64,000 bases of DNA from NCBI GenBank assembly GCA_963756875.1, contig CAVWPA010000003.1, positions 384,001 through 448,000 on the forward strand. The letters are read 5' to 3'. The notes beneath the pieces were generated by a model. The model saw only the letters and a program-made list of their open reading frames with translations, was not told the origin of the DNA and did no database searches. The translations under genes and the position numbers were made by a program. The stretch's first letter is position 1. Every line of letters starts with the position of its first letter. Shown in pieces: positions 11,628-44,347 of the stretch. Source of the stretch: an uncultured Verrucomicrobiae bacterium (GTDB lineage: Bacteria > Verrucomicrobiota > Verrucomicrobiia > Chthoniobacterales > UBA10450).

Positions 11628-11653
11628 TTGGCAATCACTGGTCTAATCTTGTC
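11628..11653 (-). promoter_or_regulatory. 26-bp motif upstream of araC-mtrA-mtrB-like genes
   Basis: Coding strand GACAAGATTAGACCAGTGATTGCCAA matches CAA-N5-G-N4-G-N7-CAA. Confidence 0.7.
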
Positions 11654-11682
11654 GAAGTGCCGCTTCCAGCTCTTTTTGGCAG

Positions 11683-11708
11683 AGCAATTCCTGCACAGAA
11701 AAAGGCAA
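11683..11708 (+). promoter_or_regulatory. 26-bp motif upstream of 11770 gene
   Basis: AGCAATTCCTGCACAGAAAAAGGCAA; -10-like TAGCGT at 11739. Confidence 0.65.
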
Positions 11709-11769
11709 TTCCCGACGAGCGGCATCGACCCCTGGTGTTAGCGTTGCAGGCGAAAGAGAGGTAATTGAA

Positions 11770-12096
11770 ATGAGCGTATTCGCGACACCGCTTGGCAAAG
11801 ATGAAGTACGCGCGAAAAATGCAATCGCGGCCGCCATGAGCATCGTGCCTGGCTTGGGTCATATATATAAGGGGCATCTGGCAGCGGGCCTGATTTGGAT
11901 GTTCTTTGGAATGCCGTTCGCGATCTGGATCGGCATCCTGCTTGGTCTTGCGACCGGGGGCATCGGCCTGCTCTTCCCCATCGTATGCTGGGCGGCGCTG
12001 GCGTATGACGCCTATTACGAAAAAGATCTGCGCAGCCATCATTTTCTGCCGCCGTTGCTACCCCCATGGACGGATGACGACAACGTCGATGATTGA
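11770..12096 (+). CDS. Small membrane protein
   Basis: RBS GAGGT; hydrophobic segments with an SIVPGLGHIY.G motif. Confidence 0.7.
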   Translation: MSVFATPLGKDEVRAKNAIAAAMSIVPGLGHIYKGHLAAGLIWMFFGMPFAIWIGILLGLATGGIGLLFPIVCWAALAYDAYYEKDLRSHHFLPPLLPPWTDDDNVDD

Positions 12097-12208
12097 TTGA
12101 GCAGGCGTGATTTACCCCCGCGGGCGTTGGCAACTGCCGGAAATGCGGCTGCGCAAAGATTTCAGAATGATGAAAAATGAATCGACCATGTCCGATTATG
12201 TTGCACGC

Positions 12209-13909
12209 ATGAAGCCCCCGAAGAAATCTTCGCGCTCCTCTCCGGATTCTTTTCCCGCCACGATGCCCCTGGGGCAGTTTCTTTTCGAATACCTTTATCG
12301 CCGCGGCGTCCGCCACAGTTTCGGCATTCCAGGCGACTTCGCGCTTTCCACTTTTGTCTGGCTTGAAAAATCAAAAATCCAAAGCGTCACAACGACCCAT
12401 GAGCCTTGCGCCGGATTCGCCGCCGATGCTTATTCCCGCATCAATGGAATCGGTCTGGTCTGTGTTACCTACTGCGCCGGAGGTTTGAATGTTTTAAATG
12501 CCATCGCGGGCGCGTATGCCGAGAAATCGCCGGTAGTGGTCGTCAGCGGCGCGCCCGGCCGGAAAGATCGGGAAAAAGATCCGCTCCTTCACCACAAGGT
12601 GAAAACGTTCGAGACCCAGCGGCGAGTTTATGACGAAGTGACGGTTGCCAGCACTGTTCTGCTGGATGAGCAGCGGGCCGCCTCGGAGATTGTCCGTTGC
12701 GTTGAGGCATGCTTGCGCCACAAACGGCCGGTTTACATTGAAGTTCCGCACGACATGGTCGATCGCGAAATTCCGGTGAACGGCATTTCGGCCGGTATCC
12801 CTGAAAAATCCGATCTTCAGGCACTTGAGGCGGCGCTTGACGAGACGTTCTCCCTGATCCGCGCCGCAAAAAAACCGGTCATTCTCGCCGGAGTCGAACT
12901 GGCGCGCTATCGTACTGCGGGACTGGTCGTGCGGATGGCGGAGCGGATGAATATTCCGATTGCCGCCGATCTTTTAAGTAAGAGCGCGGTTCCTGAAAAT
13001 CATCGCCTTTATCTTGGCGTTTATGGCGGCGCGATGAGCAGCGACGAGCACGTTCGGAAGTATGTTGAGTCCGCCGATCTCGTTTTGATGCTCGGCACCT
13101 TTATCACCGATATGAGCATGGGCTTCTACACGGCGAAGCTCGACCGGAAGCGGACTGTCCTGGCGACGTCGGAGCGCGTGAACGTTCAGTATCACCGCTA
13201 CGAATCGATTCAGTTCCGCGATTTTCTCCAGGCACTGGCCACGGCAACGATCAAGCCCAAGCAGTTCAAACATCCGAACCCGCATGCCGCCCCTGTTCCG
13301 CTGAAGAAGGGCGAGCGCTCGGATCCGTTGGCGGTGGTTGATGTGTTCCGCATTCTTTCGTTGCACCTGGACGAGCGCTGCTGCGTTGTCGCCGATATCG
13401 GCGACGCCATCTTCGGCGCAGTCGGGATTCGCAGTGCGCGACAGGCGCAATTCATCGCGCAGGCATATTATATGTCGATGGGCTTTTCGGTGCCGGCCAG
13501 CATCGGCATTGCCCTGGCCAGTTCCAGGCTTCGCCCTTATGTCCTGGTCGGTGATGGCGCCTTTCAAATGACCGGAGCCGAAATCTCCACTGCTGTCCGG
13601 CTTGGGCTCAATCCCGTTATTATCATCCTCAATAACGACGGCTACGGCACCATGCGAAAAATCCATGATGGCAAGTTCAACGTCATCACCCAGTGGAACT
13701 ACGGCAAGATTTGCGAATTGGTTGGCGGTGGTGAAACCGCCAGGGCAACCACCAAGGGCGAGCTGGACGACGCCATCCGTGGCGCCCAAAAATCCGGCAA
13801 GTTAACTGTCATCGAAGTCAAAATTCCGCGTGACGACATGAGTCCTCAGCTGGCGAGAACCAGCGTCGAAGTCGCAAGAATGCGCGGCTGGAAAAAAGGC
13901 TCTGCCTGA
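12209..13909 (+). CDS. ThDP-dependent 2-oxoacid decarboxylase (pyruvate/indolepyruvate decarboxylase family)
   Basis: FGIPGDF, HE..AGFAADAYSRING, LLHH, GDGAFQMTG...NN ThDP motif. Start uncertain (12107-12263). Confidence 0.85.
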   Translation: MKPPKKSSRSSPDSFPATMPLGQFLFEYLYRRGVRHSFGIPGDFALSTFVWLEKSKIQSVTTTHEPCAGFAADAYSRINGIGLVCVTYCAGGLNVLNAIAGAYAEKSPVVVVSGAPGRKDREKDPLLHHKVKTFETQRRVYDEVTVASTVLLDEQRAASEIVRCVEACLRHKRPVYIEVPHDMVDREIPVNGISAGIPEKSDLQALEAALDETFSLIRAAKKPVILAGVELARYRTAGLVVRMAERMNIPIAADLLSKSAVPENHRLYLGVYGGAMSSDEHVRKYVESADLVLMLGTFITDMSMGFYTAKLDRKRTVLATSERVNVQYHRYESIQFRDFLQALATATIKPKQFKHPNPHAAPVPLKKGERSDPLAVVDVFRILSLHLDERCCVVADIGDAIFGAVGIRSARQAQFIAQAYYMSMGFSVPASIGIALASSRLRPYVLVGDGAFQMTGAEISTAVRLGLNPVIIILNNDGYGTMRKIHDGKFNVITQWNYGKICELVGGGETARATTKGELDDAIRGAQKSGKLTVIEVKIPRDDMSPQLARTSVEVARMRGWKKGSA

Positions 13910-14004
13910 TTGCGGATAGAGAGCTCACGACTCGACACAGCCGCAAACATCGGTTGTTGGCTTCCGGCCTTCTCTTCTAAATAGGAAGAGAAGGTCCCGT
14001 GCTA

Positions 14005-15369
14005 TCAGGACACGTGCTCAAATTGTGCCGTGAAGTGTCGCAAAAAGGGCGGCTCAAAGACTATTTTAAAGCCCTTGAGGCCATTTTTTCTTCGGGCGAT
14101 TCCTTCGAATCCCTCAAGAATGTAATCAAAATGACTTTGAGTATAGACCCGGCGCGGAAAGGCCATGCGGACCAGTTCCATCGCCGAGTTTTTTCCAAAC
14201 ATTACGGAACCGACTTCACAGGCCCGGATTCCCTCAGCGCGGTACATTTCGCAAACCAGAGCCTGCCCGGGAAATTGTTCGGGCGGGATCTGCGGGAGCA
14301 AAGCCCTGGCATCGATGTAAACGGCGTGACCGCCCGGCGGTTGAACCGTCGGAACACCGAGCTTGTTCAGACCTTGCGCCATGTATTGAGTCACCGCGAT
14401 TCGATAGGAGAGATAGCGTTCATCGAGAATCTCTTCCAGTCCGACCGCGATAGCTTCCAAATCCCGGGCCGCCAGGCCGCCATACGTCGGGAAGCCTTCT
14501 GTCAAAATCAACGCGCTGCGCAAGGTATGCAGCCACGTGTCGGCCTTGAGCGCAATGAAACCTCCGATGTTCGAGAGGCCGTCCTTTTTGGCGCTCATCA
14601 TGCAACCATCGGCGAGTGAAAAAGTTTCCAGGGCGATCTCGCGGACGTTGCGCTCACTCTGCCCGGTCTCGCGGAGTTTGATGAAGTAGCTGTTCTCGGC
14701 AAATCGACAAACATCCAGAATAAAGGGAATCCCGTATTTTTTGTAGATGACGGCCGCGCCGTGAAGATTCTCGAGGGAGACGGGCTGTCCGCCTCCGGTA
14801 TTATTGGTGATCGTGAGCATGCCCAGTGGAATCCGGTCCTTGAATTCTGCGCAAAACTCTTCGAGGCGCTGGAGATCGATATTGCCCTTGAATGGATGTG
14901 GATTTGCCGGATCTCTGCCTTCGGCGATGACGAGATCAACGGCTTCGCCGCCCAGTTGTTCAATATTGGCGCGAGTCGTGTCGAAGTGATTGTTCGATGG
15001 GATTTTCATTCCCGGCTTTACCAATGCGCCAAAGAGAAGGCGCTCGGCCGCCCGTCCCTGGTGCGTGGGGATGACATTCGGATAGCCGGTCAGATTTTTC
15101 ACGACTCTCTCGAATCGCTCGAAACTTTGCGATCCGGCGTAGCTTTCGTCGGCGATCATCATGGCGCCCCACTGAGCGGCGCTCATGGCCGATGTCCCGC
15201 TATCTGTCAGGAAATCAAAAGTGACATGCCTGGCGGCAACCAGGAAAAGGTTGTAGCCCGCTTTCTCAAGAATCTTCTCGCGCTCACTCCGGCTGAGCAT
15301 CGGAAGCGGCTCGACCATCTTGATCTTGAAAGGCTCGATAATCGTTCTTTGAGATTCGGGATCGTTCAT
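14005..15369 (-). CDS. tnaA: Tryptophanase
   Basis: Beta-eliminating lyase motifs LTDSGT, HQGR.AE, SAKKD (PLP Lys), with Trpase-type FDTT and LRHFTA. Confidence 0.8.
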   Translation of the reverse strand: MNDPESQRTIIEPFKIKMVEPLPMLSRSEREKILEKAGYNLFLVAARHVTFDFLTDSGTSAMSAAQWGAMMIADESYAGSQSFERFERVVKNLTGYPNVIPTHQGRAAERLLFGALVKPGMKIPSNNHFDTTRANIEQLGGEAVDLVIAEGRDPANPHPFKGNIDLQRLEEFCAEFKDRIPLGMLTITNNTGGGQPVSLENLHGAAVIYKKYGIPFILDVCRFAENSYFIKLRETGQSERNVREIALETFSLADGCMMSAKKDGLSNIGGFIALKADTWLHTLRSALILTEGFPTYGGLAARDLEAIAVGLEEILDERYLSYRIAVTQYMAQGLNKLGVPTVQPPGGHAVYIDARALLPQIPPEQFPGQALVCEMYRAEGIRACEVGSVMFGKNSAMELVRMAFPRRVYTQSHFDYILEGFEGIARRKNGLKGFKIVFEPPFLRHFTAQFEHVS

Positions 15370-16815
<1,446 letters not shown>

Positions 16816-16834
16816 TCAGTATTGTGAACCTTCT

Positions 16835-17489: not shown

Positions 17490-17966
17490 ATGATGGCTGA
17501 AATGTTGCAAAAATTTTATCCTCATCTCCTCGCATTCCACGGATTGCTGCGCTGGTTTGTTCTGGCAACCGCTATCGTGGCGATTGTCGTTGCGGCCTCG
17601 GGTTGGAGCGGCAGAAAACCTTCCGGCCCTGCGCTTCGCCGATTCAGCATCCTGTTCGTCGCGTTCATGGACCTGGAATTTCTGGTTGGCCTGGTTTTGT
17701 ATTTCTGGGCTAGCCCGCTCATAAAAACAGCGTTTCAAAACATGTCGGCGGCAATGAAGGATCATCAACTGCGCTTCTTCACTGTGGAACATACGACATA
17801 TATGTTGCTGGCGGTTGTGTGCGCTCATGTTGGAGCCGCTCTCGCAAGAAAAGGCAGGACCGACCTGATGAAATATCGGGGCGCCACGATTTCATTTTGC
17901 CTTTCGCTGCTCCTCATTGTCGCTGGAATTCCGTGGTGGCGCCCATTGCTGCGGCTCGGTTCCTAG
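17490..17966 (+). CDS. Conserved 4-TM membrane protein with intramembrane His residues
   Basis: Four hydrophobic helices; FHGLLRW, VEHTTYM, CAHVG, GIPW. Confidence 0.7.
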   Translation: MMAEMLQKFYPHLLAFHGLLRWFVLATAIVAIVVAASGWSGRKPSGPALRRFSILFVAFMDLEFLVGLVLYFWASPLIKTAFQNMSAAMKDHQLRFFTVEHTTYMLLAVVCAHVGAALARKGRTDLMKYRGATISFCLSLLLIVAGIPWWRPLLRLGS

Positions 17967-19012
17967 CCGGAGGAGGCGGAGACATGAGATTTATTTCTTG
18001 TCGCCCAATCCCCGATCATTTTCTCCAAAGCTGCGATCCATAATGGATGCTCGTTGAGACAAGGAATCAGGGTCAACTCTTCGCCGCCACATTCGCGGAA
18101 TTTTTGCCGCCCGCGGATGCCGATTTCTTCCAGCGTTTCGAGACAGTCCGCGACGAAAGCAGGACAAATCACCAATAACTTTTTTGTTCCGGCTCTGGCC
18201 AGCGCTTCAATCGTGCGATCGGTGTAAGGTTGAAGCCAGGGATCCCGCCCAAGGCGCGACTGAAAAGCGATCGAGAATTTGTCGCTCGGCAGGCCGGCCA
18301 GCTCAGCAAATGCCTTCACTGTTTTAAAGCACTGCGCTCTGTAGCAGGTATCGTGTGCCGGGCTGCGTTCCGCGCAGCAGTTGTTTCGGGCCAGACAGTG
18401 ACAGTTCGTCGGATCGGATTTACGCAGATGCCTCTCGGGCACGCCATGAAAGCTGAAAAGTAAATGATCGTATTTCTGCCGCAGATAATCCGCTGCGCTC
18501 CCGACCAAGGCCGTAATGTAATCGGGCTGATCATAATAAGGAGGCATCACGCTCAGCGATATTTCCGGCGCGAGTTTCGATAGTAGCTGTTGTACACGAC
18601 GGACTGCGGTCTCGTAGCTCGACATGGCGTAATGCGGGAACATCGGAATCAGGAGCAGCTCTTTTACATTCTGCGCGCGCAGCTTTTCGATTGCTTTGCT
18701 GATTGACGGGTTTTGGTAGCGCATGGCCAGCTCGACCGGCAGGCGGACGCGCGCCTGCAATTCATCCCGCACTTTGAGACTGGTCACCACCAGGGGCGAG
18801 CCTTCCGGCGTCCAGATTTTATCGTACGCCTCGGCGGATTGCTTTGGGCGCGACGGCAAGATGGCAAGATGAACGATGCCGAACCGAATCGGATAGGGCG
18901 CATCCAGAACGCGCCCGTCCATGAGAAACTCGCGCAAATACTTCCGGACGTCGCCCACGCCTGGGGAAGCCGGTGAGCCAAGATTGACGAGTAAAACACC
19001 GCGCCCGATCAT
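17963..19012 (-). CDS. hemH: Ferrochelatase
   Basis: GVLLVNLGSP, FSFHGVP, FQSRLG..WL.P, FVADCLETLEEI. Confidence 0.95.
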   Translation of the reverse strand: MIGRGVLLVNLGSPASPGVGDVRKYLREFLMDGRVLDAPYPIRFGIVHLAILPSRPKQSAEAYDKIWTPEGSPLVVTSLKVRDELQARVRLPVELAMRYQNPSISKAIEKLRAQNVKELLLIPMFPHYAMSSYETAVRRVQQLLSKLAPEISLSVMPPYYDQPDYITALVGSAADYLRQKYDHLLFSFHGVPERHLRKSDPTNCHCLARNNCCAERSPAHDTCYRAQCFKTVKAFAELAGLPSDKFSIAFQSRLGRDPWLQPYTDRTIEALARAGTKKLLVICPAFVADCLETLEEIGIRGRQKFRECGGEELTLIPCLNEHPLWIAALEKMIGDWATRNKSHVSASSG

Positions 19013-20433
19013 GCCGTCGCCTGGAGGTGAAATGCGGCTGAACTCACTTTCAGCTTGGCGGGAACCGTGGCGAGATAACTTGCAACGCGTTCCGCCGCCT
19101 CCTGGCCGGAGACAATACAATCGGATACGGAAATCCCTTCGCGATAATGTCCCGCAAAGAATAGTCCGGGAGCGTTGAGCTCAGCTGCGCTCATGAGCCT
19201 CTTAAAGCGAGCGTAGCCGATGTTGTACTGCGGGATCGCCTTTGGAAACGTGACATGATGTTTGAAAGTCAGTTGGCCGGTCACGCCGAGCAGCACGCGC
19301 AAGTCCTCCAGTGTTATCTCGAACAACTCTTCTTCACTTCTCTGGGCCAATTCCGGCGAGCGGGCGCCGCCGAGGTAACTGGTGAGTGTTACGCAGCCGG
19401 CTGGCGCGCGATTTGGGAAAAGTGATGAGGAAAAAATGGTGCCGAGAATCCGGAACCCCTCCCCGCGCGGCACGAGCATGCCGAAACCATCCAGCGGATG
19501 CGCAACATCCTCGCGGCGGAATCCGAGAACGACACTGGCAACCGGCGGATAACGAATATCCGCCAGCGCGGCGAGATCGATGGAACGTCGCGATTGGATC
19601 TCAATTTTTGAAAGCCCGAAGGCGGGGGCCGCATACACGATCGCCGAATGCTCCGCGATTTCATTCATTCCCGAACTCACGCTCCAGCCATCACCGTTCT
19701 CGGTCAGTTTTGTCACCGGCGAAAGCAGGCGCACGTCGCGAGTCATCTTCGCGCGCAGAGTGTCGGGAAGGACCTGCAAACCCTCGTCAAAGGAGAATTT
19801 CTTCGCATTCGGTTTGGCCACCTCGTCCCGGTCTTTGCGCTCGCGCGCGCCCAGCACCTGGCCCTTAATCAGCGATCCGTATTTTTGTTCGAGCGCGTAT
19901 AATTTGGGAAAGGCTTGTTGGACCGAAAGCTTCTGCGGGTCGCCCGCGTAAATGCCGCCGACAAGCGCGTCGATGGCGCGATCGAGAAATTCCGCGCCCA
20001 ATCGGCGTCGAACAAATTCCGCTACGCTCTCTTCGCGGGTTTGATCCCCCGGCAGGATGAACGGCTCGAGAAGCAAACGCAGCTTCGCCGCCGGGGAGAA
20101 AAGCGGAGTCAGAATGAAACCGAGCGGCGAGCCCGGCATTTTTCTGAGACGCTTGCCGCGAACCAGATAGCGATTTTTCGCGGCCGGATGCGAGTAAAGT
20201 CGTCGCCCTGCCAAACCAAGATCTTCGACCAATGCCGCCACCTTTGGCGATGTTTCCAGAATCGTGTTCGGGCCGAACTCCGCCAGATAACCATCGCGAC
20301 GGACCGATTGAATCGCGCCGCCGACTCGATCGCCCGCTTCGTAGAGCGTCACGGGAATATTCTTTTGCTGAAGTTGAAACGCCGCTGTTAACCCGGTAAT
20401 CCCTCCGCCGATGATAGCGACCGGCGGTTTCAT
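19009..20433 (-). CDS. hemY: HemY-type proto/coproporphyrinogen oxidase
   Basis: IIGGGITGL FAD motif, EFGPNT, GIYAGDP..LS, AIPQY; ATGA overlaps with both neighbours. Confidence 0.9.
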   Translation of the reverse strand: MKPPVAIIGGGITGLTAAFQLQQKNIPVTLYEAGDRVGGAIQSVRRDGYLAEFGPNTILETSPKVAALVEDLGLAGRRLYSHPAAKNRYLVRGKRLRKMPGSPLGFILTPLFSPAAKLRLLLEPFILPGDQTREESVAEFVRRRLGAEFLDRAIDALVGGIYAGDPQKLSVQQAFPKLYALEQKYGSLIKGQVLGARERKDRDEVAKPNAKKFSFDEGLQVLPDTLRAKMTRDVRLLSPVTKLTENGDGWSVSSGMNEIAEHSAIVYAAPAFGLSKIEIQSRRSIDLAALADIRYPPVASVVLGFRREDVAHPLDGFGMLVPRGEGFRILGTIFSSSLFPNRAPAGCVTLTSYLGGARSPELAQRSEEELFEITLEDLRVLLGVTGQLTFKHHVTFPKAIPQYNIGYARFKRLMSAAELNAPGLFFAGHYREGISVSDCIVSGQEAAERVASYLATVPAKLKVSSAAFHLQATA

Positions 20434-21803
20434 ACCGTTTTCGAAAAGCGATCCTGCTTTCGCAATGGCAGATACGCGTCGAAACGCATGGCAATGTTTC
20501 GAATGAGCAGCCGGCCCAGGTCGGTCACGATCAAGCCGTTGGGAGTTTTGATCACCAATCCGTCGGCCTCGAGGTCGTCCAGAGAATCTAACTCGGCTGA
20601 GAAATAATCCGCGAAATCGAGATCGAGCGCCGCGGACATTGCCGCGTAGTCCAACTCCAGGTCGCACATCAGACGCATGATGGTTTGCCGGCGAACACGG
20701 TCGTCGGCGGTAAGGACGTAGCCTTTGGTCACCGGAAGTTTTCCTTCGTCGAGCGCCGCGTAATAAGCGGGCAATTCCTTGAGGTTCTGCCAATACAAGC
20801 CGTCGGTCTGGGAGATGGAGGACATGCCAAACGCGTAGATGTCCGTGCCGGCGCGCGTGCTGTAGCCCTGGAAATTTCGCTGCAAGGTCTTTTGCCGTTG
20901 CGCCTCGGCAAGCTCGTCCCCGGTCCGCGCGAAATGATCCATCCCGATGTAAACGTAGTCTTCGGAGGTCAGCTTTTCGATGGTGAGCTTGAGCAGTTCC
21001 AGTTTCGTCTCCGGCGACGGCAATGCTTCCGCTTGCAGAATTCGTTGGGCCGGCTTCATCCAGGGCACGTGCGCATAATTGAAAACGGCGAAGCGATCGG
21101 GCCGAAGCTCGAGCACTTCATCCAAAGTTCTGGCGAACGAGCCGGGCGTTTGGCAGGGCAGCCCGTAAATCAAATCGATATTAAGGGAAGAGAAGCCCGC
21201 GTCGCGGATCCAATCGACGACCGTTTTTGTCAGCGCGAACGGCTGAATCCGATGAACGGATTGTTGCACGACCGGGTCGTTGTCCTGCACACCAATGGAG
21301 GCGCGGTTAAATCCAATTTCGCGCAACGCGCTCAAATGTTCGCGGGTCAATTCGCGCGGATCGATTTCCACCGCGGCCTCGGCGTCCGGCGCGAGCGCGA
21401 ACCGGGAATGGATCATCTTTCCGAGCGCGCGAATTTCATCCGGCTTCAAAAAAGTGGGCGTGCCGCCGCCAAAATGGAGTTGAACAACTTTTCGCTTTGG
21501 ATTCAGCAGCGGCGCGATCAAAGCCAGTTCTTTTTCGAGATAATCCAGATACTTCGCGCTCTGGCCCTGTTGCGTTGTGATTACCGTGGTGCAGCCGCAA
21601 TACCAGCAAAGGGAACGGCAAAACGGCAGATGAAAATAAAGCGAAAGATCCCGTTCGGTTTGGTTATTTTCGCGGACCTTGCCCAGCAAGGTGTCGGTGG
21701 AGAAATGTCCGGCGAATTGCGTTGCCGGCGGATACGATGTGTAGCGCGGGCCCGGTACATTATATTTTTTAATGAGTTCGAGATCGACGTGCATTGGATT
21801 CAT
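20430..21803 (-). CDS. hemN: Oxygen-independent coproporphyrinogen III oxidase
   Basis: GPRYTSYPPA, HLPFCRSLCWYCGC radical SAM motif, GMDHFA, RNFQGYS. Confidence 0.95.
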   Translation of the reverse strand: MNPMHVDLELIKKYNVPGPRYTSYPPATQFAGHFSTDTLLGKVRENNQTERDLSLYFHLPFCRSLCWYCGCTTVITTQQGQSAKYLDYLEKELALIAPLLNPKRKVVQLHFGGGTPTFLKPDEIRALGKMIHSRFALAPDAEAAVEIDPRELTREHLSALREIGFNRASIGVQDNDPVVQQSVHRIQPFALTKTVVDWIRDAGFSSLNIDLIYGLPCQTPGSFARTLDEVLELRPDRFAVFNYAHVPWMKPAQRILQAEALPSPETKLELLKLTIEKLTSEDYVYIGMDHFARTGDELAEAQRQKTLQRNFQGYSTRAGTDIYAFGMSSISQTDGLYWQNLKELPAYYAALDEGKLPVTKGYVLTADDRVRRQTIMRLMCDLELDYAAMSAALDLDFADYFSAELDSLDDLEADGLVIKTPNGLIVTDLGRLLIRNIAMRFDAYLPLRKQDRFSKTV

Positions 21804-22915
21804 TGAAAGTTCCGGACCGTGGCAACGAGGCTTTCAATGCATTCCAGTCTGGCGGTCGGCGGCACGCCATGGCCAAGATTAAAGATGTAACCATTGCGTC
21901 CGCGCATTTCGGAAAGCAGACGTCTCGTCGCCACGGCGGTTTCTCCCGGCGTGGTGTTCACCAATAAAGATGGATTCAAATTGCCTTGAATACCGACGTT
22001 GTTCGGCAGGCGGTGGCGCAGATCGCCGAGGCGGACGTTCCAATCGACGCTCAGCACATTGGCGCCGCTGGCTACCAGCTCAGTCCAGCTGGAATTCGCG
22101 CCCTTGGAAAAGACGATCACCGGCACCTGGCCGGCGAGATTGGCAATGATTCGCCCGATCCAACGGCCGGAAAGCGCATCGAAGTATCTCGCAGGCGCGA
22201 AACCGCCGTGGCTGTCGAAGATCTGGATGGCGTCGACCCCGGCGTCGATTTGCATTTGGAGGAACATCGTCACGGCCTCGGTCAGTTTTTCGCAGAGGGA
22301 ATCGAAGAGGCCGCGATCGGTGCAAAATAGTTCGTAGCCTTTGGTGTGATAGGTCGCGCTGCCGCCTTCCAACATGAAATTGGCCAGCGTCCACGGTGAC
22401 CCCGCGAAACCGAGCAACGCTGTCCGGCCCCGGAGCGCATTCTTGATCAGCGGCAACGCTTCCGCCACGTACTGGAGACGTTCAACGACGGCGTTTGTTG
22501 CCAGCCGATTAATTTCCTCGGCCGTGCGCAAATTGAATTCCATTCGAATCCCGCCGCTGTCGCGAAACTGGTATCCCTGGCCCAGCGCTTCGGACACAAC
22601 AAGAATGTCGCTAAACAAAATGGCCGCATCGAAACCGAAGCGCCGGATTGGCTGCAGAGTCACTTCGGTTGCCAGTTCCGGCGTCCGAACCAGTTCGAGG
22701 AAGGAGAATTTTTCCTTTAATGCGCGGTACTCCGGCAGAACGCGGCCAGCCTGTCGCATCAACCAGACCGGCGGATGATCGACAGGGCGGCCAAGGCAGG
22801 CGTTCCGGAATCGCTCACGATTGGTCAGTCCGGGGCCGCCAGTCTCTTGGGAATCGCCGTCTCGACTTCGCGCGTTCTTCGTGCGCGACGGTGGCTGGAT
22901 CGCTATGGGATGCAT
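21800..22915 (-). CDS. hemE: Uroporphyrinogen decarboxylase
   Basis: PVWLMRQAGR.LPEY, DAAILFSDIL, FNLGHG. Confidence 0.95.
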   Translation of the reverse strand: MHPIAIQPPSRTKNARSRDGDSQETGGPGLTNRERFRNACLGRPVDHPPVWLMRQAGRVLPEYRALKEKFSFLELVRTPELATEVTLQPIRRFGFDAAILFSDILVVSEALGQGYQFRDSGGIRMEFNLRTAEEINRLATNAVVERLQYVAEALPLIKNALRGRTALLGFAGSPWTLANFMLEGGSATYHTKGYELFCTDRGLFDSLCEKLTEAVTMFLQMQIDAGVDAIQIFDSHGGFAPARYFDALSGRWIGRIIANLAGQVPVIVFSKGANSSWTELVASGANVLSVDWNVRLGDLRHRLPNNVGIQGNLNPSLLVNTTPGETAVATRRLLSEMRGRNGYIFNLGHGVPPTARLECIESLVATVRNFQ

Positions 22916-22967
22916 CGAAATTCTGCGTTGAGGCTAAACGCTTCTACGGTGTTTTGATTTGCCGTTT

Positions 22968-22993
22968 TTGCGGAATGTTGGGCGTTTCTTGCG
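22968..22993 (-). promoter_or_regulatory. 26-bp motif upstream of hemE operon
   Basis: CGCAAGAAACGCCCAACATTCCGCAA (one mismatch, position 16); -10-like TAGCCT 32 nt downstream. Confidence 0.65.
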
Positions 22994-25460: not shown

Positions 25461-25618
25461 CTGTTATCTCCAGGTTGACGAGCGAACCGCAGCGAGCGTG
25501 ACACGGAGCGTATAGCCATCGGCTCGGGAACGGTGTCTCTGTAAGATTTTCGGGCGACACGCCGCGCCACGATCATGTTAAATTGAAACGCCACTCGCAC
25601 AGTGGCGCTCTCCGTCTC

Positions 25619-25644
25619 TTGACAATCACTGGTCAAATCTTGCT
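25619..25644 (-). promoter_or_regulatory. 26-bp motif upstream of transketolase-like gene
   Basis: AGCAAGATTTGACCAGTGATTGTCAA; 22/26 identical to the site at 11628. Confidence 0.7.
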
Positions 25645-27993: not shown

Positions 27994-28057
27994 GCAGGGT
28001 TCTCGTGCCTTTGCGGCATGAACATATAACCAGGCACTTTCCCCGCCTAACCAGCGG

Positions 28058-28083
28058 TTGTCTTTTGCTGCGCAAATGTTGTG
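28058..28083 (-). promoter_or_regulatory. 26-bp motif upstream of AEP-like gene
   Basis: CACAACATTTGCGCAGCAAAAGACAA; -10-like TATGTT 32 nt downstream. Confidence 0.65.
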
Positions 28084-31084: not shown

Positions 31085-31120
31085 AATTAACTGCGAGAAG
31101 CGCGCTGCGCTTCGCGCCTT

Positions 31121-31146
31121 TTGTCAAAAACCGACCGTTTTTTGGC
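31121..31146 (-). promoter_or_regulatory. 26-bp motif upstream of esterase operon
   Basis: GCCAAAAAACGGTCGGTTTTTGACAA; -10-like TAATTT 32 nt downstream. Confidence 0.7.
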
Positions 31147-32061: not shown

Positions 32062-32200
32062 AATTTTGTTCTCCAGTAATTCATCGATTTTGAGTTGGGA
32101 ATTTACATCGCTTCCTCCCGCGGATGCAGAATAATTTCATAATTGTTCGCCTTCCTTAGTCAGACCGAACAGGAGACCGGCCGGGCACGCTCCACCGATC

Positions 32201-32226
32201 TTGCGAAGAACTGCGCAGTTCTTGCC
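32201..32226 (-). promoter_or_regulatory. 26-bp motif upstream of DUF2267 operon
   Basis: GGCAAGAACTGCGCAGTTCTTCGCAA. Confidence 0.7.
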
Positions 32227-32322: not shown

Positions 32323-32348
32323 CGCAAAATCTGAACAGAGTCTCGCAA
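32323..32348 (+). promoter_or_regulatory. 26-bp motif upstream of serine protease
   Basis: CGCAAAATCTGAACAGAGTCTCGCAA; CATAGT 32 nt downstream. Confidence 0.7.
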
Positions 32349-32434
32349 CCCTTGAAGAGCGGTATTGCCGCCGGCGTTTCATAGTTGACGCACAGAAACA
32401 AAGTAATGAAAGCGTTCGCATCGTTCGCTACTTA

Positions 32435-33444: not shown

Positions 33445-33470
33445 GCCAATTTTTGCATCGGAAATGACAA
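33445..33470 (+). promoter_or_regulatory. 26-bp motif upstream of receiver-domain gene
   Basis: GCCAATTTTTGCATCGGAAATGACAA. Confidence 0.6.
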
Positions 33471-33512
33471 GCAGAGACAAGTGTTGTTCCGCTTGTCCAC
33501 GTAAGTAGACTT

Positions 33513-33962
33513 ATGAAAGGCAATATCCTCCTGGTGGCGAACGGCGACGCCGATTCAAATGCGATCATCGCCGAGGCAGCAAAACAAACTGGGCGCGGGT
33601 TGACCAAGGCCAACAGCGACCGGCAAGCGTTTGAAGTTCTCAGCATGGCAACGGACGATGTCGACATGGCGATCATCGATCTCGATCCGGGCATTCACAG
33701 TCTTTCCATTCTTGAAGCGATGGGCTGGGCCGAAACCGCTCCGCCGATCATCGTTGTGACGAGCCTGAACGAATCAGAAGCGGCTCCGATCGCGTCGCGC
33801 CACGGTGCTGCCGCTTGTATCGGCAAACCGTTTACCGCTTCACAAATCGTTTCAGCGATCGAGCGGATTTGTTCGTCGTGGAGGCCGCAGACGTTGTCGT
33901 GCGATTTCTGGGGACATCCGCGTTCGTGGCGGGACCGCGCGGCTTTAAATCAGCCGGCATAA
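33513..33962 (+). CDS. Single-domain response regulator receiver
   Basis: AIIDLD, PIIVVT, GA...IGKPF; the N-terminal acidic pair is atypical. Confidence 0.75.
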   Translation: MKGNILLVANGDADSNAIIAEAAKQTGRGLTKANSDRQAFEVLSMATDDVDMAIIDLDPGIHSLSILEAMGWAETAPPIIVVTSLNESEAAPIASRHGAAACIGKPFTASQIVSAIERICSSWRPQTLSCDFWGHPRSWRDRAALNQPA

Positions 33963-34037: not shown

Positions 34038-34700
34038 CTATTGCGACACAGATTGGCGCCCGGGAGCCTGCGCGAGAATTTCGCGGACTTCATCGTCGGT
34101 TGTTTGTCCGAATTCCTCGTACCATTGGCCCACGGCGTAGAAGTTTTCGGGCACCATCACCGCGGCGACATCGTCGGCTGCCTGCCGAATTTGATAGTAG
34201 GTCGATGCGGCGATCACCGGCGCGGCGACGACAATACGGCCTGCGTTTAATTGCCGCAGCGCGGCGACGGCGGCCATCATGGTCGAGCCCGTGGCGATTC
34301 CGTCATCAACAAGGATGACCGTTTTTCCTTCGATATCCGGCCGCGGACGATCGCCGCGATAAAGTTTTTCGCGCCGCTGGAGTTCGGCCAGCTCTTCCGC
34401 GGTGACGGCTTCGATGACTTCGTCCGGAATCCGCAAAGTGTTTACAACATCGCCATTGAGCACGCGGACACCGCCGGAGGCGATGGCGCCCATGGCCAGT
34501 TCCGGATGGCCGGGCAAACCAAGTTTGCGGACCACAAAGACATCCAGTGGCACGTTTAATTTTTTTGCGACTTCGGCGGCGACCGGCACGCCGCCGCGCG
34601 GCAGCGCAAGGACAAGCACATCGTCCCGGTTTACGTAGTTGCCGAGATTTTCCGCCAGAAACCGGCCGGCTTCAGATCGATTCAGAAATCGTGTTTTCAT
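34038..34700 (-). CDS. Phosphoribosyltransferase (Rv0571c / Rv2030c N-terminal type)
   Basis: [38 protein letters not shown]. Confidence 0.9.
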
Positions 34701-34755
34701 GCTTGGGCCTCCTGAGGTTACCTTGTTCGTTCCCGTCGGGCGGGCTCTGCGAAAC

Positions 34756-34781
34756 TTGGCAAAGGCTGCGCTAATTTTGCG
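34756..34781 (-). promoter_or_regulatory. 26-bp motif upstream of PRTase
   Basis: CGCAAAATTAGCGCAGCCTTTGCCAA. Confidence 0.7.
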
Positions 34782-34862: not shown

Positions 34863-34888
34863 CGCAATATCTGCGCAGGGATTGGCAA
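34863..34888 (+). promoter_or_regulatory. 26-bp motif upstream of hsp20
   Basis: CGCAATATCTGCGCAGGGATTGGCAA. Confidence 0.7.
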
Positions 34889-34950
34889 GAGATGGTGAGC
34901 GGTGTTCGGATGGCGTGATCTGCTTGTACTCAGGCAAGGAAAGGAAAGTT

Positions 34951-35403
34951 ATGGATACACTCACAACCTGGAACCCGTTCCGGGAGTTGGATGAGGTTCA
35001 AAACCGTCTAAGCACATTCTTCGGCGGTTTCCCCCCTCGTCTCTTCGGGAATGGCAAGAAACTCAAAATGACCGACTGGTCGCCCCTGGTGGACATCATC
35101 GAGGACGACAAGGAGTACCTGGTCAAAGCCGATCTGCCGGAGATGAAGAAAGACGACGTTAAAGTGACAATGGAAAACGGCGTGCTGAGCATCTCAGGCG
35201 AGCGCAAGGTCGAGAAAGAAGAAAAGAACAAAAAGTACCATCGCATCGAACGCTCAATCGGCACCTTTGAGCGCACATTTACCGTGCCCGAGGATGCCGA
35301 TCCAAGTAAGATCGCCGCCGAGTTCAAGGAAGGCGTGTTAACGGTCCACCTGCCGAAGAGCCCGGCAGCAAAACCGAAACCCATCGAGGTCAAAGTACAG
35401 TAG
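34951..35403 (+). CDS. Hsp20/alpha-crystallin small heat-shock protein
   Basis: [45 protein letters not shown]. Confidence 0.95.
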
Positions 35404-39082: not shown

Positions 39083-39160
39083 GACGCGTTGAGAAGCTAA
39101 CTCACCGGAACTCGAAAGGACAGGCGTGAGCGATCTTAGCATTGTAATCTCTTAACGCGG

Positions 39161-40285: not shown

Positions 40286-40327
40286 GCTCCAACATGAATT
40301 AGCCACCGCGAAGAGGCTTGCCGTTGC

Positions 40328-40353
40328 TTGCCAAAAGCGAACCGTTTCTTGCG
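40328..40353 (-). promoter_or_regulatory. 26-bp motif upstream of USP
   Basis: CGCAAGAAACGGTTCGCTTTTGGCAA; CATGTT 32 nt downstream. Confidence 0.7.
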
Positions 40354-40514: not shown

Positions 40515-41531
40515 CTATCTCCGGCTGAGCTCTTCCAGTCTCGCGGGGAGGCGCGAACCTTTTATCCCGACGCTCCGTTTGGAGCGTTTGCCCAGATTTG
40601 CCATTCTCGTCTCACGATGCGATGGCGCGACCAGAACGGAACAGGGCGCGTGTCGGACGATCTGTTCCGCGGTGCTGCCCATCAGCACATGTTTGAGCCC
40701 GGTCCATCCATGCGTTGAGGTGACGATCAGATCGATCTTGTGTTCGTCGGCAAATGAGCAAATCTCCGGCACCGGCGCGCCGAGCACGATTTTCGTTTCA
40801 AATTTCACGGTGCCGAATTCCGCCGAGCGCACGAACTCTTGCATTTGCCGCTCGGCATTTTTGCGCGCAGCCTTCTCCAAACCGGAAAGATCATACAAAG
40901 CGAGTCCATCGCTCGTATAAATGTAGCCGGGATAGACAGCGTGAAATACGATCACCTTCGCCCCCACGCGATCGGCAAACGAGACGGCGTAGCTCAGGCC
41001 TTCCTGCGAGCAAGCGGAAAAATCCACCGGCACAACGATCGTGTTGATGGGTGATGCGAACCGGCCTTTCAGGGCGTCCGTATTCTCCCGCGAAACAAAG
41101 ACCGGACAGGGCGAATGCTGCACGACCCGCTCGGCCGTGCCGCCGAGAAAAACGTGTTTGAGCCCGGTGTGACCATGCGTGGGCATGACAATGAGGTCGG
41201 CCGGAAGTTCCTTCGCAAGCTTGCAGATTTCATGAAACGCCGAGGGCCCCTCGATCAAGTGCGTTGCCTCCGTGGGCGACAGGCCGGATTTGCGCGCCAG
41301 CGTTTTCAATTCTTCAGCGAGCGTCTCCCGTCTGTGCTCCTCGAACGACACCGGCCGGTTCCCCGCCGATAACACCGGCCCCATAAAATCGGTTGGATAT
41401 TGCCAGTGATGAACGTGCGCCAGATGAACGCTTGCGCCGAACCGATGGGCCAGCCGCTTCGCAGTGTCGATAGCCTGGATCGACAGCTCGGAAAAATCGA
41501 TTGGCACCAGAATAATGCCTTCTGTTTTCAT
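40515..41531 (-). CDS. Tandem-domain universal stress protein (paralog)
   Basis: Two USP domains; close similarity to 39161..40285. Confidence 0.92.
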   Translation of the reverse strand: MKTEGIILVPIDFSELSIQAIDTAKRLAHRFGASVHLAHVHHWQYPTDFMGPVLSAGNRPVSFEEHRRETLAEELKTLARKSGLSPTEATHLIEGPSAFHEICKLAKELPADLIVMPTHGHTGLKHVFLGGTAERVVQHSPCPVFVSRENTDALKGRFASPINTIVVPVDFSACSQEGLSYAVSFADRVGAKVIVFHAVYPGYIYTSDGLALYDLSGLEKAARKNAERQMQEFVRSAEFGTVKFETKIVLGAPVPEICSFADEHKIDLIVTSTHGWTGLKHVLMGSTAEQIVRHAPCSVLVAPSHRETRMANLGKRSKRSVGIKGSRLPARLEELSRR

Positions 41532-41574
41532 GTTGAAAATATGAGTGCACCCGCCGGCAGAGGCTCGGCGTCGC

Positions 41575-41600
41575 TTGCGAAAACCGAAGCGTTTTTTGCG
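41575..41600 (-). promoter_or_regulatory. 26-bp motif upstream of USP
   Basis: CGCAAAAAACGCTTCGGTTTTCGCAA; CATATT 32 nt downstream. Confidence 0.7.
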
Positions 41601-41639
41601 CGCTTTAGCCGGCCCGCTCAGCCGGATGCCGTAGCTTCT

Positions 41640-41777
41640 GGGGAGCACAGGCTGCCAGCCTGTTGATCTCGGCAGCTTGCCGAGACGGGCAATGGGCCAA
41701 CTGTCCCGGAAATCCTGGCGTGCAAAGGTGTTGCCGCCAGGCTGCCGGCAACTACAGGCTGGCAGCCTGTGCTCCCC
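41640..41777. repeat. REPIN-like element with perfect 24-bp terminal inverted repeats
   Basis: GGGGAGCACAGGCTGCCAGCCTGT (41640-41663) / ACAGGCTGGCAGCCTGTGCTCCCC (41754-41777), with internal hairpins. Confidence 0.75.
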
Positions 41778-41847
41778 GAAAAGAGCTTATGCGCGGCAGT
41801 GATGGGCGTAGCGTGTAAGTTCGCCTGCTAAAATCTTTCGCAATGCA

Positions 41848-42774
41848 CTACGCCGTTTTGGACGGGTGTTTTCCGTTTAGCCGTTCGCGAAATTCGGTGG
41901 GCGATTGGCCGAAGACGCGTTTGAACATGCGATTAAACTGCGTGAGCGATTGGAATCCGACGTCATAAGCCACCTCGCTGATCCGCCGGTTCGGGTTCAG
42001 GAGTTGCGTCCTGGCGTCTTCCAGCCGGACCCGCGCGACATAGTCGGTGAATTTCAAGCCGGTTGATTTTCGGAAGACCTTGCAGAAATGGAAAACGCTG
42101 GCTCCTGCCGCCTTGGCCACAGCCGCCAGCGAGAGCGGCTCCATTTTGTGCTGATCGATGTACTCGCGCGCCTTGTGTACGAGGAGCGGTTCGGCGTTTT
42201 GTTCTTCCAACACAATCTGGTTGGTTAAGCCGGAAAGCTGGTCGGCGAAAAAGCTGAGCAGCCGCACGATGGCGTTGTAGCGGTCCGGCGGAATGAGCGG
42301 ATTTTTCTCCCACACTTTCTTGATTTCCCTGTTGAATTTGACTCCGTGCCGGGCCAGCTCGCGTGTGACCTTTACGGTATCCGACTTGGCCGGCGTATGA
42401 CGCAGCACCTGCCCGATTCTCAGATATCCGATGACCTCGTGTCCAAGTTTTACCGGGATCGCAGTTTCGGTCAGGCCAAAAGGGCAGGTCACCGTATGCG
42501 GAAGCACGCCGGTGTGGTCGATCATGTCCTGGTGTGCCTGCAAACAAACCGCCAATGTGGCGGGCCGCTCGGCGAGCAAAGCGCAGAACGCGTTCTCGTG
42601 CTTTTTCCCGTGATGTGCAAGCTGCCAGAACTCCAGGGGTTGCAGGGCCAGCGGGAGACCGGTTGCCCTGGTAAAGACAGTCTCGTAGTCACGGAACAGC
42701 CGCGACCTCCGCAGCATGTCGATCAACTGCCGATTTCGATTGCTCTTTAATTCTAAGGAGGGGCTTTGGGGCAT
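41848..42774 (-). CDS. AraC-family regulator with PocR-like sensor domain
   Basis: F..ATGLP, FC.LL, C, CPFGL.E.AIPV, IGQV PocR pattern plus C-terminal AraC HTH. Confidence 0.88.
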   Translation of the reverse strand: MPQSPSLELKSNRNRQLIDMLRRSRLFRDYETVFTRATGLPLALQPLEFWQLAHHGKKHENAFCALLAERPATLAVCLQAHQDMIDHTGVLPHTVTCPFGLTETAIPVKLGHEVIGYLRIGQVLRHTPAKSDTVKVTRELARHGVKFNREIKKVWEKNPLIPPDRYNAIVRLLSFFADQLSGLTNQIVLEEQNAEPLLVHKAREYIDQHKMEPLSLAAVAKAAGASVFHFCKVFRKSTGLKFTDYVARVRLEDARTQLLNPNRRISEVAYDVGFQSLTQFNRMFKRVFGQSPTEFRERLNGKHPSKTA

Positions 42775-42862
42775 TGCGGCTAGGATGCATAATTTCGGCT
42801 ATTGTGAATTAGCCGTCAACGCGCAACACGACCCCTGTTCTGCGAGGTCAGGATACCTGGTG

Positions 42863-43471
42863 TCAATGTCGCTTTAGCGGGGATGCAAATGGATGGTCTT
42901 TCCATTTGCCGTAGCCGTCCGCTGAATCGAGTTCCTGGTCCATGAACGGCGATTCCAGGACGACCGGCGGGAGCGGCGCGCCGTGCGCGTAAACGGAGAG
43001 CATTTTTTTCCGCGCAGCTTGTAATCGCTTCATCATTACCGGGGTGATCCGTTTGAACAATTCGTAGCCTAACGAATGATCTTTTTCGCAGTATTCACGC
43101 AAAATTGTGCCGTAAAAGAAGATGGCCGAAGTCGGTTCCGCGGCGCGGGCGGTGAAATGCCAGACGTAAGGAGGGAACATCCACGACCAGCCGAGCAAAT
43201 CTCCCGAGCCGATGGTTTCCACGACTACGGGATCGCCAAAGCCTTCGCCTGATTCCAGGATCACGCTGCCGTTTTCGATCAGGTAGAACCGGTTTGCCAG
43301 CTCGCCTTCGCGCAAAATGGTTTGCCCCGTTTTGAAATGGACGGGAATTGCGCAATCGGTAAGGAGCGCGAGATGCGGGCGACTCATTCCAGCCAGGAAA
43401 GGATGGAGCGCCACGCGGGTCGCCATCGATTCGGTTTGTGTTTCGGTTCGTGTTGCGATTTGGGTTTTCAT
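42863..43471 (-). CDS. Stand-alone cyclic-nucleotide-binding (Crp-like) domain protein
   Basis: ILREGE.A..FYLI..G.V, GDLLGWSW, FTARA; no evident HTH. Confidence 0.8.
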   Translation of the reverse strand: MKTQIATRTETQTESMATRVALHPFLAGMSRPHLALLTDCAIPVHFKTGQTILREGELANRFYLIENGSVILESGEGFGDPVVVETIGSGDLLGWSWMFPPYVWHFTARAAEPTSAIFFYGTILREYCEKDHSLGYELFKRITPVMMKRLQAARKKMLSVYAHGAPLPPVVLESPFMDQELDSADGYGKWKDHPFASPLKRH

Positions 43472-43669
43472 CAGCCTTTCCTCTCTTTTTGATCTAACGA
43501 TCCGCCAATCACGAGGGCCTCCCGCTCGTTGTAATCGAATGCAAAAGTGCGCGGCCTGGGTGGCACGATTCTCTTCCCCGTTAATCTGGTGACACCGACG
43601 ATTTCAACGCGGCCTTTGTCGTGTCCGTCCCTCTTTCTTCGGTGAAGCGCGCAGGAGAGCCTTTTCATC

Positions 43670-44203
43670 TCACAGGAAGTCGTGCTCCTTTTCGCGCACC
43701 ACCAATACCGGGCAGGGGGCTGCGCGAGCGACGCGTTCCGCCGTGCTGCCGATCGCGAAATACTTCCAGCCCGTGTAACCGTGCGTCGCGATCACGATCA
43801 GATCGACGTCCAAATCTTTAGCCGCCTCGACGATTTCGTGCGTCGCAACTCCGGCGCGCACCATCGATTTTGCATCGGACACGCCAGCCGCTTCAGCCTC
43901 ATCGACCAGCTCGTGCAGGCCCGTCTCCGCATCCACGAATTCCTTTTCGACGATTGCGGCAGGCGCGGGCGGCAGCCCCGCCAGCGTCAACGAAGCTGGC
44001 GGTTCGACCACGTGCAGCAGAGTGATTTTGGACCCCAATCCCTTGGCGAATCGAAGCGCGTAGCAGAAGGATTTCCTCGATGCCGGCGAAAAGTCGGTTG
44101 GCACCAATATCTTCGTAATGGTGATTGGCCGCTGCCCATTGGCTCCTTCGACGACGGACGTCGGTGCTTTGGCCCGCTTGCTGGCAACGCTCTGTGCTTT
44201 CAT
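43670..44203 (-). CDS. Single-domain universal stress protein
   Basis: ILVPTDFS, DLIVIATHG.TG, GSTAERV.R.APCPVLVV. Confidence 0.92.
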   Translation of the reverse strand: MKAQSVASKRAKAPTSVVEGANGQRPITITKILVPTDFSPASRKSFCYALRFAKGLGSKITLLHVVEPPASLTLAGLPPAPAAIVEKEFVDAETGLHELVDEAEAAGVSDAKSMVRAGVATHEIVEAAKDLDVDLIVIATHGYTGWKYFAIGSTAERVARAAPCPVLVVREKEHDFL

Positions 44204-44247
44204 GGGACGAATCCTCGCCCCTTGCGTGGATGTCCGCTCCGCGGTAG

Positions 44248-44273
44248 TTGGCAAATTCTGTGCGTTTCTTGCG
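44248..44273 (-). promoter_or_regulatory. 26-bp motif upstream of USP
   Basis: CGCAAGAAACGCACAGAATTTGCCAA. Confidence 0.7.
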
Positions 44274-44321
44274 CCACCAAAATGGAAGGAACACCGCGCC
44301 TGCGGCCGCCGATTCGGCCTG

Positions 44322-44347
44322 AGCAATTTCCGCTCAGCCAAAGCCAA
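44322..44347 (+). promoter_or_regulatory. 26-bp motif upstream of P-type ATPase
   Basis: AGCAATTTCCGCTCAGCCAAAGCCAA; -10-like TACATT at 44378. Confidence 0.65.

Follow-up and report, generated by a model that had tools for sequence, protein, structure and literature searches.

Genes for cbb3 oxidase, HemN, pyruvate:ferredoxin oxidoreductase (PFOR) and [FeFe]-hydrogenase are oxygen-limitation genes of the FNR-target type, the FNR box being the palindrome TTGAT-N4-ATCAA, and DosR is a two-component system with heme kinases. In Mycobacterium tuberculosis, universal stress protein (Usp), Hsp20 and phosphoribosyltransferase/esterase genes (Rv2028c-Rv2031c) are described as hypoxia-induced (PMC4410610). 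Among AraC/XylS-type activators, XylS is reported to bind two 15-16-bp direct repeats at Pm, in which helices 3 and 6 contact one A and one B box per repeat (PMC5481539), and PocR is reported to have boxes of 20 and 48 bp upstream of -35 and to require both R51 and D64 for its response to a diol, 1,2-propanediol (PMC11264322). PocR and MtaR are compared elsewhere as activators with positive autoregulation (PMC13602510). Here we analyze a 64,000-nucleotide window (G000:C3:384001-448000) from the genome of an uncultured soil Verrucomicrobiae bacterium (G000; 2.69 Mb, 88% complete), in which a 38-bp direct-repeat motif occurs at 15 sites. The motif is real, almost beyond doubt, and judging from sequence comparisons it is very probably bound and read by a full-length PocR-AraC protein encoded at 41848..42774 on the minus strand. 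The best explanation of the whole, a PocR-AraC operator that governs a low-oxygen regulon under a metal-centre sensor, is one that we consider reasonably probable.

An initial annotation of the window had described a 26-bp motif at these 15 sites, all of which we recovered at the positions and on the strands reported, with G11 in 15/15 and G16 in 14/15 (A at 22968). Every site lies outside the gene calls and points to a downstream gene, and the four back-to-back pairs are present. Alignment of the 15 sites with their flanks confirms the motif and corrects its length: it spans 38 bp and comprises two half-sites with a 21-bp period, gCAA-N5-G-N2-CAG followed by gCAA-N5-G-N3-AGC, joined by an AT-rich stretch and conserved at columns 3-5, 11-16, 24-26 and 32-38. 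The 12 bp beyond the shorter version hold G32 and A36 (both 15/15), G37 (14/15) and C38 (11/15), with chance probabilities of ~6e-9 for G32 and 1e-10 for A36; because columns 32-38 played no role in the choice of sites, they answer the worry that the motif was derived post hoc. The estimate of about two chance matches for the original eight-base pattern was too low, since the window actually holds 24 (14 of the reported sites and 10 others), and the 10 extra matches, at no more than 3.8 bits with the full matrix, are those of chance.

For genome scans, a window matrix was built from the 15 window sites and an independent matrix from only 227 non-redundant sites of other genomes, the remainder after sites 70% alike were removed. 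Leave-one-out scores of the window sites range from 16.8 to 38.5 bits. Across the whole genome the window matrix gives 23 matches of at least 20 bits, all non-coding and eight of them beyond the window, with none for 20 column-shuffled matrices in the same scan. The independent matrix recovers 15/15 window sites (23.7-41.6 bits) and nine further non-coding sites in this genome; 24 of its 25 matches of at least 20 bits are non-coding (shuffled mean 0.33, maximum 2). These counts depend on a hexamer-based gene-calling script rather than Prodigal, which covers 83% of the genome with some starts mis-set and with misses such as the Hsp20 gene at G000:C3:1379098. In 79 loci around the closest relatives of the PocR-AraC gene, 76 of them titled Verrucomicrobia, Chthoniobacterales, Spartobacteria or Candidatus Udaeobacter, we found 314 matches of at least 18 bits in 78/79 loci (0-2 for shuffled matrices, n=20), of which 288 are non-coding and 247 lie within 300 nt of a same-strand start. 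Columns beyond 0-39 are flat, the flanks of the sites being without similarity. The motif is conserved upstream of orthologues as well, with a site ahead of 93/133 Usp genes, 28/30 receiver genes, 9/9 Hsp20 genes and 11/20 YbdK ligases in related loci of the family of G000 (f1; f6, f7, f8, f13 and f53 denote other families). Three of the 79 loci (L034, L037 and L066) encode regulators 73-76% identical, yet are titled Alphaproteobacteria, Nitrospirota and Gemmatimonadaceae, possibly through misbinning or transfer.

Motif and regulator gene are found together. Among 15 other genomes of f1, the eight with the PocR-AraC gene have 5-17 matches to the fixed pattern and the seven without it have 0-3, and all four f1 genera that hold one gene-positive and one gene-negative genome agree. 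In f7 the number of matches is 12-17 in four complete gene-positive genomes (controls 2-6) and 2 in a gene-negative one (control 4), and across 200 genomes of the phylum the 25 gene-positive ones total 90 matches versus 16 for a control pattern. By matrix scan, the motif lies near the gene in 13/13 first loci from f7 and f13 and in 14/17 further loci from the order. The motif also varies with the protein: Phe at helix-3 position 228 of the regulator goes with the CAA box, and in f6, which has Arg228, 6/6 loci retain both G/AG boxes and the -10 spacing and have lost CAA. GAA/GAT boxes are present in G005 and G255, whose regulators have a third helix-3 type, and G281 shows another variant. By eye, regulators with His in place of Gln in helix 6 seem to accompany sites in which the invariant G of the second box is followed by G, not C (L209-L224).

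Several observations weigh against this assignment. At the scale of the phylum, 3/25 gene-positive genomes have no match and several gene-negative ones have 5-9, and the fixed pattern is therefore a weak test at such distance; many gene-positive genomes of the order outside f1 likewise have no match to this IUPAC pattern, a poor test beyond that family. The label 'regulator-negative' is itself unsafe outside f1, since the E 1e-30 cut overlooked divergent regulators (28-30% identity) in G005, G281 and G255. Three of the 17 further loci are without a site at 14 bits. Each change of helix 3 and CAA is a single event, with three lineages at most, and related genomes and loci are kin rather than independent, so that p-values overstate.

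The genome has five AraC-type helix-turn-helix (HTH) matches, two of them with a PocR domain, and either of two paralogues could be imagined as the main reader of the motif, which we consider very unlikely. The HTH-only paralogue (11196..11585, minus strand; 129 aa), which the initial annotation had named next to the full-length protein, co-occurs with the motif, its orthologue being present in 7/8 regulator-positive and 0/7 negative f1 genomes, and its second recognition helix is the same as that of the full-length protein. G332, however, has five motif matches and no HTH-only orthologue, helix 3 of the HTH-only protein differs from that of the full-length protein and is of the third type, seen with GAA/GAT and not with CAA, and in f7 the motif is found at loci next to the full-length gene. 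The second full-length PocR-AraC paralogue (G000:C3:1380198-1381190, L083:8198-9190, minus strand) has an altered helix 3 with Arg228 as in f6; of the sensor-domain residues discussed below, it retains one core cysteine of three and neither candidate fourth ligand. Of the two proteins first proposed, the PocR-AraC protein is upheld by co-occurrence and by helix/box co-variation, and the HTH-only paralogue is the less likely reader given its absence in G332 and its helix type. A same-strand site upstream of the HTH-only gene in 12/14 orthologue matches suggests that this paralogue is probably a target rather than a reader, perhaps a second tier or a brake. A GAA/GAT tandem motif tried as its own target was rejected, with only 5/42 and 2/34 matches in non-coding DNA of G000 versus 22/28 for CAA. 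The second paralogue lies 1.2 kb from a motif-bearing Hsp20 gene, has a similar sequence among the representatives (P0229) and is possibly a metal-free modulator.

The arrangement of the sites suggests how the promoters are built. A sigma-70-type -10-like hexamer lies 19 nt downstream of the 38-bp motif (positions 58-63), in agreement with the (T/C)AnnnT hexamer noticed earlier, which starts at position 57 or 58 in 9/15 window sites. Conservation within columns 1-38 of the 227 non-redundant sites is partly by construction, and the -10 and ATG signals lie outside them: A59 is present in 65% and T63 in 73% of the sites, and an ATG stands at positions 69-72 in 111/227 (six control windows: 4-18). 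Another ATG peak lies at positions 82-85. From the -10 at 58-63 and the ATG peak at 69-72 it follows that the proximal half-site would cover the -35 region and that about half of the transcripts appear leaderless. In all likelihood the protein activates transcription from these sites. Gaps between back-to-back sites cluster near 19, 30, 50 and 71 bp with a period of ~10.3 (p 0.0002 by a jitter test on 48 non-redundant pairs, though kin do not count as independent). The fixed distance to the -10-like hexamer and to start codons is what would be expected if the motif were a dispersed repeat or a promoter used by an alternative sigma factor, an explanation we find barely conceivable: the motif covers four major-groove boxes between about -68 and -32, its flanks are dissimilar, 227 sites are left once those 70% alike are taken out, and its gain and loss go with those of the AraC gene.

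In the window, the strongest site of the whole genome (44236..44273, minus strand, 41.6 bits) lies ahead of a Usp gene (43670-44203), a gene for a protein with a cyclic nucleotide monophosphate (cNMP)-binding domain and the regulator itself. Two tandem-domain Usp genes follow sites at 40316..40353 (minus, 36.2 bits; gene end 39161, ATG at position 69) and 41563..41600 (minus, 37.7 bits; 40515-41531, ATG at position 70). Other sites stand ahead of Hsp20 (34863..34900, plus, 37.1 bits; 34951-35403), a phosphoribosyltransferase (34744..34781, minus, 33.4 bits; 34038-34700), an erythromycin-esterase-family gene (31109..31146, minus, 33.2 bits; 29726-31078, ATG at position 69), DUF2267 and host-attachment-family genes (32189..32226, minus, 29.7 bits; 31187-32061), a trypsin-like protease (32323..32360, plus, 29.6 bits; gene end 33406) and a stand-alone receiver protein (33445..33482, plus, 23.7 bits; 33513-33962, ATG at position 69). 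Metabolic and transport targets comprise the heme genes hemE-hemN-oxidase(hemY-like)-hemH at 17963-22915 (site 22956..22993, minus, 30.7 bits), a P-type ATPase at 44406-46610 (44322..44359, plus, 29.2 bits), a 108-aa protein (11770-12096) with a thiamine pyrophosphate (TPP)-dependent enzyme ending at 13909 (11683..11720, plus, 29.7 bits) and a transketolase-like gene at 23031-25460 (25607..25644, minus, 33.8 bits). A site at 28046..28083 (minus, 24.5 bits) precedes a 485-aa protein without Pfam match (26536-27993) and then a TIM-barrel gene. The site at 11616..11653 (minus, 30.4 bits) precedes the HTH-only gene, with its ATG at position 69, and the unit continues into a multiheme cytochrome (7 CxxCH) and a putative porin (8087..11173, minus). 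As first reported, no match lies upstream of suf, pyr or mrp, here by matrix scan.

The porin gene is split by a frameshift into 8961-10247 and 8087-8911 (428 and 274 aa, in different frames) and stands in one frame in 5/6 homologous loci, the split being a sequencing indel or a pseudogene. Assembly indel errors are also suggested by a glutamate-synthase-small-subunit-like gene in two open reading frames (ORFs) under site C3:1348123 (L081:6646-8152, minus) and by a COX1 gene of the same genome (C1:382950-384303) in two frames. The porin cluster is adjoined at 2385-6571 by an 11-heme cytochrome with a cytochrome b partner and a NapC/NirT-type cytochrome, with no motif of their own. Sequences 11628-11653 and 25619-25644 share an identical core of unusual length, 12 bp across the spacer, possibly from recent copying or for a second factor. 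A short ORF at 25457-25576 (minus), which begins at position 69 of the motif and ends in a stop codon that overlaps the transketolase-like ATG, is possibly a leaderless upstream ORF with translational coupling. Two tandem beta-eliminating lyase genes of tyrosine phenol-lyase or tryptophanase type (14005-16764, minus) have no site upstream.

Beyond the window, sites in G000 precede one more Usp and a second Hsp20, an operon of zinc dehydrogenase, Usp and ATPase genes, and PFOR together with a PyrD-like gene. Others stand ahead of a YbdK-type ligase, an oxidoreductase resembling the small subunit of glutamate synthase, and small proteins, and one site (C3:627099) has no callable gene downstream. 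Weaker sites (13-17 bits) are found ahead of a Usp and an acetate-CoA ligase, and an aldolase-ackA-phosphoketolase run has a site of 12.9 bits in the first scan only.

In other families the regulator is found beside genes of microaerobic respiration. In f7 it lies within 1.5 kb of ccoN in 12/13 genomes, and a 22-33-bit site stands upstream of the cbb3 operon in 12/12. All 11 ccoN genes found in f6 and f53 are within ~4 kb of a PocR-AraC gene, and in the single f8 genome ccoN is 38 kb from the regulator, yet has a 19-bit site. Of the 34 regulator-positive genomes searched, 22 had no ccoN match. Among six ccoN loci from genomes first scored negative, three have a divergent neighbouring regulator with a variant site, and three have neither regulator nor site within the fetched flanks (scores -6 to -14). 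The complete f7 genomes further carry sites ahead of hemN, PFOR, a three-gene [FeFe]-hydrogenase operon and Usp, as well as an acyl-CoA transferase, EF-G and an oxidase subunit II, and the f7 cytochrome-porin operon has a one-mismatch pattern match 86 nt upstream. Divergent from the f7 cbb3 operon is a gene for a 150-170-aa CxCG/CxxC protein (L088:10648-11151 and L096:10422-10892, both minus) without a Pfam or NCBIfam match; this gene has a separate site, with the ATG at position 70-72.

A PocR-AraC low-oxygen operator is supported along four independent lines, by co-occurrence, by co-variation of helix and CAA box, by adjacency to cbb3 in three other families and by the target set, and low oxygen is likely the inducing condition. 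In 32 genomes searched, no FNR scored above the family cut-off. The weaker CRP-family matches present in 16 of them begin at profile positions 33-52, and no N-terminal cysteine cluster is seen in the 12 that were inspected. In G000 there is no FNR (NF008365), Rex or bd-oxidase match, and its sole HTH_Crp_2 match reads by eye as a MarR-like protein. The proposal of a low-oxygen programme in place of FNR/DosR holds only in part: the cbb3, hemN, PFOR and hydrogenase targets and the lack of FNR and Rex in an 88%-complete genome are in its favour, the terminal oxidases of G000 are without a site, and a DosR-type system was not searched for.

A number of points count against low oxygen. All three heme-copper oxidase loci of G000 lack a site (best 10.6 bits within 9 kb), and the programme here is therefore one of fermentation and dormancy rather than microaerobic respiration. 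One f7 site lies ahead of the subunit II gene of a caa3/aa3-type oxidase, and FNR could be missed in G000 because its genome is only 88% complete. Many targets of G000 (Usp, Hsp20, protease, receiver) fit general stress equally, and a general stress or stationary-phase regulon, with oxygen as one condition among several, would agree with most G000 and f1 targets being Usp, Hsp20, receiver, YbdK-type ligase and proteins of unknown function and with no G000 oxidase having a site. We nevertheless consider such a regulon unlikely, as cbb3, HemN, PFOR and [FeFe]-hydrogenase form the link best conserved between families and as the Usp, Hsp20 and phosphoribosyltransferase/esterase genes of M. tuberculosis are described as hypoxia-induced (PMC4410610).

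The regulator has 308 aa from the first ATG (the start may be later) and scores 58.2 bits for PF10114 (cut-off 23.9) and 88.1 bits for PF12833 (cut-off 33.6). In its structure model (predicted local distance difference test score 91), the N-terminal domain is GAF-like, with GAF matches at Z 8-9.6 (NifA GAF: Z 9.6, root-mean-square deviation 2.8, 108 aligned), and the C-terminal double HTH matches AraC-type domains at Z 11-16. The gene probably lies in a Usp-cNMP-regulator operon under the genome's strongest site, and positive autoregulation of this operon is likely, as 39/54 full-length related loci have a site on the same strand 0.6-2.3 kb ahead of the regulator. Directly upstream is the stand-alone cNMP-binding-domain protein (42863..43471, minus; PF00027 only), in which no HTH or other DNA-binding domain was found; it is a possible partner, its gene accompanying the regulator in 63/79 related loci.

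The regulator carries C64, C77, H81 and C97. The three cysteines are nearly invariant and align with C47, C60 and C82 of E. coli PocR, and are therefore a family trait. The PocR diol residues R51 and D64 are replaced, aligning with A68 and H81, the latter position being Gln in most other members. Most verrucomicrobial members combine a fourth cysteine, C74, with Gln81, and a Udaeobacter-related clade combines Leu74 with His81. Of the 123 distant representatives that retain all three core cysteines, 118 have at least one of C74 and H81 (C74 only 91, H81 only 22, both 5, neither 5); the 123 were drawn from 152 aligned segments by leaving out 19 incomplete ones and 10 without a core cysteine. In the structure model, positions 74, 77 and 81 lie on one helix at i, i+3 and i+7, which fits a four-ligand metal site in the pocket where PocR binds its diol. 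Direct sensing by such a metal centre falls somewhat short of probable in our judgement. More tentatively still, a PocR domain with an oxygen-labile Fe-S cluster, derived from an alcohol-sensing domain, could be a previously undescribed type of oxygen sensor and the FNR equivalent of much of the class; the proposed ligands, which we put forward with equal caution, would be four cysteines in most Verrucomicrobiae and three cysteines plus a histidine in the Udaeobacter-related soil clade.

Other evidence tells against a redox centre. The three core cysteines are common to diol-sensing PocR, so the cysteines alone are no proof of a redox sensor, four thiolates may form a structural Zn site, and the C74/H81 swap is a single event on the tree. 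In separate searches, Foldseek returned AraC HTH domains and weak CodY matches and no metal-site match, the ESM Atlas gave only PocR-domain clusters (0.89-0.90), and searches of solved structures by sequence and of plasmids with the PocR domain found no match. The same protein and operator could act with a structural zinc and an indirect signal, such as a fermentation product, a small alcohol, the energy state or a partner, a reading that we regard as doubtful. Canonical PocR, with the same three cysteines, responds to a diol, the domain has a ligand-binding GAF fold, and candidate partners are at hand, though as doubtful as the indirect signal itself: in f1 the cNMP-domain protein, present in 63/79 loci, and in f7 the small four-cysteine protein divergent from the cbb3 operon. 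On the other side, R51 and D64 are replaced, the fourth Cys/His ligand is kept in 118/123 representatives, and neither partner is seen beside the regulator in both families.

In the mechanism that we favour, two PocR-AraC monomers would bind head to tail on half-sites 21 bp apart, the first recognition helix of each reading CAA and the second the G-N3-AG box, and would recruit sigma-70 RNA polymerase to promoters without a consensus -35. The sensor would most likely be a four-ligand centre of the three family cysteines plus C74 or H81, holding a redox-active Zn-thiolate site or else an Fe-S cluster that is labile to oxygen. The regulator would probably boost its own operon and switch on the HTH-only paralogue. 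Its regulon would be a low-oxygen programme shared by many Verrucomicrobiae. In other families it would comprise cbb3 oxidase, HemN, PFOR, hydrogenase and porin-cytochrome genes, and in G000 genes of heme synthesis, porin-cytochrome and PFOR as well as Usp, Hsp20 and further genes of dormancy type.

Verrucomicrobia, including Udaeobacter-related lineages, are abundant in soil, and our literature search found no described global low-oxygen regulator for them. The matrix, with ~24 promoters per genome and almost no background, may serve as a readout of what uncultured lineages switch on as oxygen falls, among them the porin-cytochrome clusters proposed to pass electrons to humic substances, and gives context to many proteins of unknown function. 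It also raises the sharp question of whether a PocR domain carries a redox-sensing metal centre, which a 300-residue soluble protein and a 38-bp duplex make accessible. In the open literature, regulon databases lying outside the search, we found no account of this regulon, of a PocR-domain oxygen sensor or of an AraC-run low-oxygen programme. Anantharaman and Aravind reportedly described the PocR domain in 2005, and Isanapong et al. are said to have compared strain TAV2 at low and atmospheric oxygen in 2013; these two studies may bear on novelty and on the oxygen claim.

The operator design is of a known kind. By analogy, XylS has the same direct-repeat A/B-box arrangement as the 38-bp motif, with an operator reported to overlap the polymerase site (PMC5481539); the boxes are CAA and G-N3-AG here versus TGCA and GGTA for XylS, and a protein with a PocR/GAF-like sensor would act here on ~24 promoters where XylS controls one catabolic operon. 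PocR of Salmonella and E. coli and MtaR of Eubacterium limosum share the order of PocR domain, helical linker and double HTH. Compared with PocR, both recognition helices differ here and an extra Cys or His is present, and the targets, unlike those of PocR and MtaR, lie outside the cob/pdu and methanol genes: the annotated ones include neither cob nor pdu, pdu genes not having been searched genome-wide. By domain content the regulator belongs to the AraC/XylS family and has a PocR domain, but it departs from PocR in its diol residues and in its targets. The cytochrome-porin genes of the window and of G189 match the verrucomicrobial layout described by He et al. 2017 (PMC5615132), the available text of which gives no regulator for porin-multiheme clusters and does not mention Fnr, whereas here the motif lies upstream in two families. 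FNR, FixK and Anr have the same target set as the regulator in f7, f6 and f53 (cbb3 operon, hemN, PFOR, hydrogenase, Usp), but FNR belongs to an unrelated protein family and binds a palindrome instead of a direct repeat, and for an Fe-S cluster there are here only candidate ligands. Like the DosR/DevR regulon, the genes controlled here bring together Usp, Hsp20, phosphoribosyltransferase and erythromycin-esterase-family members, with a single AraC protein implicated in contrast to DosR. The protein would work like FNR or DosR while belonging to neither family.

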